From a virus (lineage: Duplodnaviria; Heunggongvirae; Uroviricota; Caudoviricetes), in IMG/VR virus record IMGVR_UViG_2648501392_000011: a stretch of DNA of 5,373 nt; one strand, given 5' to 3'. The notes beneath the pieces were generated by a model. The model searched no databases. It saw only the letters and a program-made list of their open reading frames with translations, and was not told where the DNA came from. Made by a program: the position numbers and the translations under genes. Positions 3,524 to 4,252 of this stretch are shown here, piece after piece (the stretch's first letter is position 1; every line of letters starts with the position of its first letter).

Positions 3524-3533
3524 GTGCACAGAA

Positions 3534-3556
3534 AACCCCCAGCTAGGCTGGGGGTT
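3534..3556 (+). terminator. IS200 left-end perfect hairpin (read-through terminator / candidate TnpA recognition hairpin)
   Basis: aacccccagc - tag - gctgggggtt: a perfect 10-bp stem with 3-nt loop, about 11 nt inside the inferred left end. Matches the published description of a left-end terminator hairpin in IS200 as I recall it. Confidence 0.55.
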
Positions 3557-3591
3557 CCGGAAAGCTTTCAGCTTTGAGCCAGTTATTAAAA

Positions 3592-3660
3592 CCCCTTTTG
3601 ATTTGTTAAAACACCTTGCGGTCTGGCAACTGCAAGTGTCAAACAAGAAATCAAAAGGGG
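3592..3660 (+). promoter_or_regulatory. RBS-sequestering stem-loop in the tnpA 5' UTR
   Basis: ccccttttgattt (3592-3604) is the perfect reverse complement of aaatcaaaagggg (3648-3660). The 3' arm contains the SD (aaaaggggg, 3653-3661) that precedes the ATG at 3667. Confidence 0.55.
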
Positions 3661-3666
3661 GTCCCA

Positions 3667-4125
3667 ATGGGGAACGAAAAGAGCTTAGCGCACACCCGAT
3701 GGAACTGTAAATATCACATAGTATTTGCGCCAAAATACCGAAGACAGGTGTTCTACAGAGAGAAGCGTAGAGCAATAGGCTGTATTTTGAGAAAGCTGTG
3801 TGAGTGGAAAAGTGTACGGATTCTGGAAGCTGAATGCTGTGCAGATCATATCCATATGCTTGTGGAGATCCCGCCCAAAATGAGCGTATCCGGCTTTATG
3901 GGATATCTGAAAGGGAAAAGCAGTCTGATGCTTTACGAGCAGTTTGGTGATTTGAAATTCAAGTACAGGAACAGGGAGTTCTGGTGCAGAGGGTATTACG
4001 TCGATACGGTGGGTAAGAACACGGCGAAGATACAGGATTACATAAAGCACCAGCTTGAAGAGGATAAAATGGGAGAGCAGTTATCGATTCCCTATCCGGG
4101 CAGCCCGTTTACGGGCCGTAAGTAA
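3667..4125 (+). CDS. tnpA: IS200 transposase TnpA (Y1 HUH transposase, 152 aa)
   Basis: ATG at 3667 with SD aaaggggg 5-6 nt upstream, to TAA at 4123-4125. The translation MGNEKSLAHTRWNCKYHIVFAPKYRR...ECCADHIHMLVEIPP...NTAKIQDYIKHQLEED has the HUH motif (HIH) and a C-terminal Tyr in the arrangement typical of IS200 TnpA. The ORF-track version starting at 3616 uses an upstream TTG with no SD and lies inside the 5' stem-loop. Confidence 0.9.
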   Translation: MGNEKSLAHTRWNCKYHIVFAPKYRRQVFYREKRRAIGCILRKLCEWKSVRILEAECCADHIHMLVEIPPKMSVSGFMGYLKGKSSLMLYEQFGDLKFKYRNREFWCRGYYVDTVGKNTAKIQDYIKHQLEEDKMGEQLSIPYPGSPFTGRK

Positions 4126-4206
4126 CGAAGTTGGATGCAAATGTCAGATCGTGTGCGCCTGTTAGGGCGCGGCTGGTAAGAGAGCCTTATAGGCGCATTT
4201 GAAAAA

Positions 4207-4225
4207 CCTCCGGCTATGCCGGAGG
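4207..4225 (+). other. IS200 right-end subterminal hairpin
   Basis: cctccggc - tat - gccggagg: an 8-bp stem with 3-nt loop, followed by the AT-rich run atatttatttt. Same architecture (gaaaa + CC-rich arm, 3-nt loop) as the left-end hairpin. Confidence 0.45.
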
Positions 4226-4252
4226 ATATTTATTTTGCCCGGAGAAAGGTGA

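Follow-up and report, generated by a model that had tools for sequence, protein, structure and literature searches.

A complete copy of the insertion sequence (IS) IS200C lies between the tail chaperone and tape measure genes of an Escherichia coli prophage. The stretch of DNA analyzed here, all 5,373 nucleotides of which we call the window, makes up the whole of contig JHRX01000108.1 in draft assembly GCA_001265685.1; it covers a portion of the late operon in a lambdoid prophage belonging to the BP-4795/Stx-phage type, and its positions 3524–4234 (possibly 4235) are an intact IS200C, a member of the IS200 group of the IS200/IS605 family (Table 1). In the account that we favor, and that we consider very probable, IS200C was inserted by "peel and paste" directly behind a native terminator of the phage, with an orientation dictated by that target and with likely read-through of the element by late transcription.

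The identification of the element rests on several matches. The 771-nt stretch 3490–4260 is 100% identical to sequence in six complete E. coli genomes and 99.9% identical to that in a seventh, and all seven of these genomes annotate an "IS200/IS605-like element IS200C family transposase" between "tail assembly protein T" and "tape measure protein"; the isoform name used here is taken from this RefSeq annotation of identical sequence. The transposase carries an HUH motif (HIH, residues 61–63) and a single catalytic tyrosine, Tyr125 (Y125F is a catalytically dead IS200 TnpA mutant; PMC4513863), and matches solved IS200/IS605 structures, including 2ec2, 2f5g, and IS608 TnpA (2a6m), with E values of 1e-22 to 1e-14. 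Because its open reading frame (ORF) is intact and the encoded protein (WP_000526113.1) is identical to that of other chromosomal IS200C copies, at other insertion sites, this copy is probably transposition-competent. The Rfam family STnc490, which stands for the IS200 5′ untranslated region (UTR)/art200 region, is matched at 3534–3657 with 146 bits against a gathering score of 56; the match lies on the tnpA-sense strand and takes in the left-end hairpin, and hence marks the region rather than the orientation of the antisense RNA art200, which is known to be antisense to the IS200 5′ UTR (PMC4513863). The left-end hairpin corresponds to the bidirectional terminator at nt 12–34 of IS200, which stops ∼85% of impinging transcripts (PMC4513863, PMC5435999). 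At the other end, GAAAAA precedes the right-end hairpin, and a terminator scan flags this end on both strands. No terminal inverted repeats were found; the left end and the reverse complement of the right end agree at 11 of 40 positions. IS200C-like sequence is very common in the species, being present in 3,099 of 5,426 complete E. coli genomes (57%), with a median of two copies.

A preliminary description of the window, made from the letters alone, had called a complete IS200/IS605-family element with a highly structured 5′ UTR, co-oriented with the late genes and inserted between the stop of T (3489) and the start of the tape measure gene (4253). All of this is borne out: the element and its completeness by the Y1_Tnp, STnc490, and RefSeq matches, the UTR by the fold energy and z score of its stem-loop, the orientation by the location of tnpA on the same strand as G-T and the tape measure gene, and the position by the ORFs together with the Pfam matches to Phage_tail_T and TMP_3. 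The same family matches in Pfam, Rfam, and RefSeq dispose of the doubt, raised in that description, that the segment might have no IS200/IS605 relatives at all.

The ends of the element could be located to the nucleotide on the left and to within one nucleotide on the right. The left end is exactly 3524 (GTGCACAG...), and the right end is 4234 or 4235 (...GGAGGATATTTATT[T]). The period of a tandem IS200C dimer (locus L006) is 711 nt, running from GTGCACAG... to ...GGAGGATATTTATT; at the azuC terminator, comparison of the empty site in K-12 (L011) with the occupied site in AR_0015 (L003) yields an exact 711-nt insert with no duplicated bases; and the lambda tR2 site in Lambda_ev058 (L199) likewise fits an exact insert. 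Against the BP-4795 empty site, which has eight T, the insert in the window is 712 nt long, with one T more at the right junction; PhiR63_2 (L198) also has one T more at the right junction than Lambda_ev058 at tR2, and in CD45 the left T-run differs by 1 nt. The span of 3524–4231 proposed earlier is thus exact on the left and, judged by the dimer period and by the empty and occupied sites, 3–4 nt short on the right. In the azuC and lambda tR2 pairs of empty and occupied sites, there is no target-site duplication, and the short target is kept on the left flank.

The uninterrupted counterpart of this locus is abundant. A reconstruction of the empty T/tape-measure junction matches 1,245 complete genomes (∼2,900 copies, 90%–99.4% identity) as well as 92 phage records, among them BP-4795 and many Stx1/Stx2 phages; the occupied junction was found in 7 complete, mostly long-read genomes only. 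Because the empty site is present in so many genomes and phage records, the 0.7-kb segment is an insertion and not native, contrary to the other doubt raised at the outset, namely that related phages might carry the same ∼0.7 kb at this position as conserved sequence. That the segment is native phage sequence or an assembly artifact has next to no chance of being right: the window is a short draft contig, and nothing else speaks for this idea, which has to contend with an overwhelmingly commoner empty site and with the same junction in the seven complete genomes.

The DNA that abuts the element on the left is itself an intrinsic-terminator-like structure that is present in all empty sites, and its hairpin (3498–3521) folds with −12.5 kcal/mol. 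The preliminary description had counted this hairpin, given as 3501–3523, among at least three that the IS brought into the operon. The three that it listed all fold strongly, but only those at 3534–3556 and 4207–4225 come from the IS; the hairpin at 3501–3523 is phage DNA and the target of IS200C, and it lies outside the element. We also considered, and rejected, the idea that it belongs to a longer variant of IS200C (BLAST hits to other copies began at ∼3499), because the flanks at other sites are different, merely similar terminators and because the hairpin is present in the empty sites.

Insertion next to a terminator is the rule for this element. All seven independent E. coli IS200C copies examined adjoin the T-run of a terminator in the same orientation, the terminators being those of azuC, rnpB, typA, dgcZ, ompC, and a prophage ORF6N gene, together with the site in the window; terminators of non-coding RNAs are also used, as at rnpB (RNase P RNA; L005, 1480–1540) and at the azuC/azuR small RNA (L003). 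A wider scan, in which one genome per species and IMG/VR were queried with the left-end hairpin, provided 153 distinct left flanks from Yersinia, Serratia, Vibrio, Citrobacter, Phytobacter, Mailhella, Elusimicrobia, Bacillota, and others. A hairpin plus T-run (i.e., a GC-containing hairpin ending ≤12 nt away, plus ≥5 T in the last 9 nt) is found at 87% of these flanks, compared with 0.4% of 1,465 random positions in the same loci, and most flanks that fail this criterion still have imperfect hairpins by eye. The hairpin criterion alone is satisfied by 90.8% of the occupied sites versus 8.5% of 10,477 other TT[TA]TT pentamers in the same loci, and the mean fold energy of the last 40 nt of the flank is −18.0 kcal/mol versus −7.1 kcal/mol in the control (P = 8e-82). 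Across the 153 sites, the five bases next to the element on the left have the consensus TT(T/A)TT, and TTATT forms the end of the IS itself; the distance from the foot of the hairpin to the insertion point is mostly 6–8 nt, and the right-end tail of the IS measures 9 nt. A terminator association of IS200-type elements is not new: terminator-like sequences have been reported to be over-represented just upstream of ISs, most strongly for IS200/IS605 (ISME J 2026, PMC13548323).

This target preference dictates both the position and the orientation of IS200C in the window, because an element whose target is an intrinsic terminator is necessarily co-oriented with the transcript that owns that terminator. 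The insertion would have taken place by the single-strand "peel and paste" pathway, immediately 3′ of the T-run of the native terminator-like hairpin, under a landing rule that calls for a hairpin followed by TT(T/A)TT, that is, for an intrinsic terminator. As for how such a site may be recognized, GAAAA(A) is found 5′ of the left-end, the right-end, and the phage target hairpins alike, and at least three A are present in the 5 nt upstream of 62% of the targeted hairpins versus 33% of other terminator-like structures, a control that contains false positives. IS608 has a guide sequence 5′ of each of its hairpins, with which its cleavage and target tetranucleotides pair (PMC5934647); by analogy, the A-rich guide (GAAAA) 5′ of both IS200 hairpins may pair with the T-rich cleavage site, and a terminator composed of an A-tract, a hairpin, and a T-tract may resemble the right end of the element. 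Head-to-tail IS200 dimers (L006, 1532–2953; L106; L176) were also seen, in which the second copy starts directly after the ATATTTATT of the first; the right end of the element can hence serve as a target, and the idea of a likeness between terminators and right ends is fitted by these dimers. A bolder version of the idea, in which TnpA recognizes single-stranded intrinsic terminators as right-end mimics (A-tract guide, GC hairpin, and 6- to 9-nt T-rich tail) and in which all terminators, including those in antiterminated phage operons, would then be safe landing pads, is one that we put forward tentatively and think rather unlikely.

Whether the insertion is polar or is read through was left undecided in the preliminary description, and the indirect evidence leans toward read-through. 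Two terminators, the native one and that of the left end, would shield tnpA from outside transcription in the lysogen; after induction, late transcription would have to cross three hairpins and ∼0.7 kb of scarcely translated RNA. Lambda N- and Q-modified polymerases resist intrinsic and Rho-dependent terminators, and we find it on the whole probable that the Q-modified RNA polymerase reads through IS200C, in which case the insertion would be at most weakly polar and would not by itself make the prophage tail-less. Read-through of terminators was already needed before IS200C arrived, because the operon natively holds the hairpins at 2051–2065 and 3497–3523, and a gene for an antitermination protein or a DUF1133 (Q-family) protein is found upstream of the lysis, head, and tail genes in four IS-bearing prophages (L002, L195, L196, and L197). 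The same insertion is present in mosaic prophages that have different Q and early modules and different effector cargo, and that occupy two attachment sites, next to potB in FORC_042, F8704-2, and E110019 and next to yodB/zinT in CD45. Downstream of the IS, the tape measure, M, L, K, I, J, lom, and fiber genes are intact in E110019, F8704-2, and CD45, and the downstream tail genes of FORC_042 are intact except for a frameshift in the fiber gene.

A "frameshifted portal protein" that PGAP annotates in the IS-bearing prophages was considered as a sign of decay and rejected, being an annotation artifact in three of the four. The region in question (14488–17072 of L002 and its equivalents in L196 and L197) consists of two overlapping intact ORFs, which BP-4795 shares (ORF58 and ORF59), and FORC_042, E110019, and CD45 each have an unbroken 454-aa portal ORF; F8704-2 (L195) alone has a real 1-nt portal deletion, in a G5 run.

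A second antiterminated operon provides a parallel. In PhiR63_2 (L198, 6001–6711) and Lambda_ev058 (L199, 6001–6711), a co-oriented IS200 follows lambda tR2 (GCAGGCCTTTTTATT) without any gap; the insertion lies between ren and ninB, upstream of Q. The viability of these two phages rests on their deposition as phage genomes, with the propagation host ECOR13 named for PhiR63_2, and a literature search found no description of how either was obtained; if the records stem from propagated particles, they suggest that phages can grow with a co-oriented IS200 in an antiterminated operon, here the pR operon under N. Further phage-borne locations were seen in the IMG/VR data: a co-oriented IS200 lies between lom (Ail/Lom, 199 aa) and the side tail fiber gene in six contigs (L151, L152, L160, L164, L178, and L181), IS200 directly follows the Q antiterminator gene in one (L189), and it follows an ORF6N gene downstream of Q in L145 and L150, as it does in E. 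coli (L004).

Several points weigh against the account given above. IS200C was found at the T/tape-measure junction in 0 of the 92 phage records carrying that junction and in no IMG/VR contig, and a scan of JGI metagenome contigs for the left junction gave no match; occupancy amounts to 7 of ∼1,250 junction-bearing genomes (∼2,900 junction copies), a rarity that is compatible with a fitness cost. The left-end hairpin of IS200 stops ∼85% of ordinary transcripts (PMC5435999). Spread among mosaic prophages could have come about by recombination between resident prophages, without viable particles, and the hairpin association could be due in part to purifying selection that removes insertions from genes, and not to a choice of site by the transposase.

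These points have to be weighed together with a rival reading of the insertion as strongly polar, in which three tandem terminators, along with Rho acting on 0.7 kb of untranslated RNA, would block expression of the tape measure and distal tail genes and leave a tail-defective, effectively cryptic prophage that is kept for its effectors (NleB, EspK, and others). The efficiency of the left-end terminator fits this reading, as does the fact that tnpA is barely translated (PMC4513863, PMC5435999). So do the terminator-like right end, the scarcity of the occupied site (present in seven genomes and in no phage-derived record with this junction), and the type III effector genes of the prophages, which could justify their retention. 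We nevertheless regard strong polarity as rather doubtful: the two native terminator-like hairpins mean that late transcription must already resist terminators, a resistance that is established for N- and Q-modified polymerases against both intrinsic and Rho-dependent terminators; the downstream tail genes are without decay in several mosaic backgrounds; and in two phage-genome records a co-oriented IS200 sits after tR2, upstream of Q, where strong polarity would prevent late expression. Read-through by the Q-modified polymerase, with at most weak polarity, remains the reading that we prefer.

A further matter is whether the occupied junction arose once and then spread or several times independently at a preferred target. 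From position 4372 on, the tape measure gene in the window matches the BP-4795 (IS-free type) allele with 99.6% identity, whereas all seven complete IS-bearing genomes share another allele (96.5% over 4000–4800); no match to the exact haplotype of the window was found among complete genomes. The allele switch, ∼140 nt downstream of the IS, may be a recombination breakpoint, a sign of an independent insertion, or the product of a chimeric short-read contig. Recurrent insertion could explain the difference between the tape measure allele of the window and that of the seven genomes, and the extreme target specificity would favor it. Still, we judge it improbable, given that the window and six genomes agree at every one of the 771 nt of the IS and its junctions, with other IS200C copies differing by 0.5%–2%, and given that a 5.4-kb short draft contig could be a chimera of two resident prophages.

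The features of the window are collected in Table 1. The 3′ end of the tail assembly chaperone gene G contains the slippery sequence A AAA AAG (3174–3180) for a −1 shift into T; with T in the −1 frame and this run at the end of gene G, the arrangement is that expected of a G-T frameshift pair. The ribosome-binding site of the tape measure gene (GGAG, 4241–4244) lies outside IS200C and is intact. In the major tail protein, the Ig-like domain comprises residues 149–233 (Ig_2, Ig_3, and I-set matches). Around the second native terminator-like hairpin, the scan lists another + strand hairpin at 2008–2024 as overlapping with that at 2051–2065 (region 2008–2074); the tail of the latter ends in TTATT, which makes it another potential IS200 target. 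At the beginning of the window, nt 1–87 recur two or three times upstream in related prophages (94%–98% identity), and the gene at 8–553 hence carries variable repeats; it also has a sub-threshold match to the carbohydrate-binding family CBM_5_12 (24 bits; cut-off, 26.2). The repeat in this gene is probably the reason why the contig ends at nt 1.

Table 1. Genes, hairpins, and parts of IS200C in the 5,373-nt window
Feature	Position	Strand	Remarks
Head-tail connector	550–876		
Head closure	887–1237		
HK97 gp10-like	1234–1680		
Tail completion gp17	1677–2021		
Second native terminator-like hairpin	2051–2074	+	Hairpin 2051–2065, tail T6ATTA; terminator scan; between tail completion and major tail genes
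Major tail protein	2088–2804		C-terminal Ig domain
Tail assembly chaperone G	2810–3184	+	Pfam Phage_TAC_1, E = 1.7e-61
T part of G-T chaperone	3208–3489	+	Stop 3487–3489; Pfam Phage_tail_T, E = 4.6e-19
Native phage intrinsic-terminator-like element, IS200 target	3497–3523	+	GAAAA-CCTGC-TGTG-GCAGG-T7
IS200C	3524–4234 (right end maybe 4235)	+	711 nt; tnpA only, no tnpB
Left-end subterminal hairpin	3534–3556	+	IS200 nt 12–34; −18.7 kcal/mol
Antisense RNA art200	approx. 3586–3675	−	Putative, placed by homology
5′ UTR stem-loop	3592–3660	+	−32.1 kcal/mol, z = −4.96; Shine-Dalgarno-sequestering structure, nt 69–138 (PMC4513863)
tnpA	3667–4125	+	152-aa Y1 HUH transposase; Pfam Y1_Tnp (PF01797), E = 1.7e-37
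Right-end subterminal hairpin and T-rich tail	4207–4234	+	Hairpin 4207–4225, −15.9 kcal/mol; 9-nt tail ATATTTATT
Tape measure gene, 5′ part	4253–5373, open to window end	+	Pfam TMP_3, E = 1.1e-58

Compared with the IS200C/IS200 elements known from E. coli and Salmonella, the copy in the window has the same overall size (∼710 bp), a single 152-aa Y1 transposase, the nt 12–34 hairpin, the nt 69–138 stem-loop, and the art200/STnc490 region, and it likewise lacks inverted repeats and target duplication; it differs in its location and in being 711–712 nt long, versus the 707 nt quoted for the Salmonella element. IS1541 of Yersinia pestis is also inserted beside structures that look like Rho-independent terminators; Odaert et al. 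(1998) reportedly described terminator-like stem-loops as hot spots for IS1541, having seen them at 8 of 14 sites, and the Y. pestis copies in our 153-site scan follow the same pattern. The difference is that the terminator in the window lies inside a phage late operon and not at the end of a chromosomal operon. With IS608 and ISDra2, IS200C shares a related Y1 HUH transposase (E = 1e-18 to IS608 TnpA), subterminal hairpins, and a short target that remains on the left flank, with the element inserted 3′ of it. For IS608, however, the tetranucleotide TTAC suffices, whereas IS200 sites almost always add an adjacent hairpin; the element in the window is also without tnpB, unlike those two, and the guide pairing that we propose for IS200 is only presumed.

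The setting of IS200C recalls the classical polar insertions of IS1 and IS2 in lambda operons (e.g., r14 and r32), whose polarity is relieved by N or Q antitermination. There, too, an IS sits in an antiterminated phage operon, with its polarity modulated by the phage antiterminator; those insertions were selected as mutants, whereas the IS200C in the window lies at a native terminator and has no known phenotype. Class C group II introns, according to Robart, Seo and Zimmerly (2007), are said to home to sites 3′ of the stem-loops of intrinsic terminators. Homing to the side of a terminator avoids gene disruption in that case as well, but the likeness is one of strategy only, as these introns are retroelements with a wholly different mechanism.

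Taken by itself, the IS200C in the window is an ordinary event, in which a very common IS occupies its preferred type of site, at a junction already annotated in seven genomes. Some novelty lies only in two ideas, that terminators may act as right-end mimics and that antiterminated phage operons may offer harmless landing sites. On this latter idea, IS200C could sit in the middle of an essential phage operon because it lands only at terminators that the antiterminated polymerase must already ignore. If the tentative mimic reading were true, the terminators at tR2, downstream of Q, at the T/H junction, and between lom and stf would all be safe landing pads, and the element would be silent in the lysogen, be read through on induction, and be able to travel with the phage. 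The phages with IS200 after tR2 and the prophage with IS200C at the T/H junction would also form a compact pair for gauging the passage of N- and Q-modified polymerases across an inserted IS, and the same pair could tell recognition of a terminator hairpin by the transposase from mere survival of selection.

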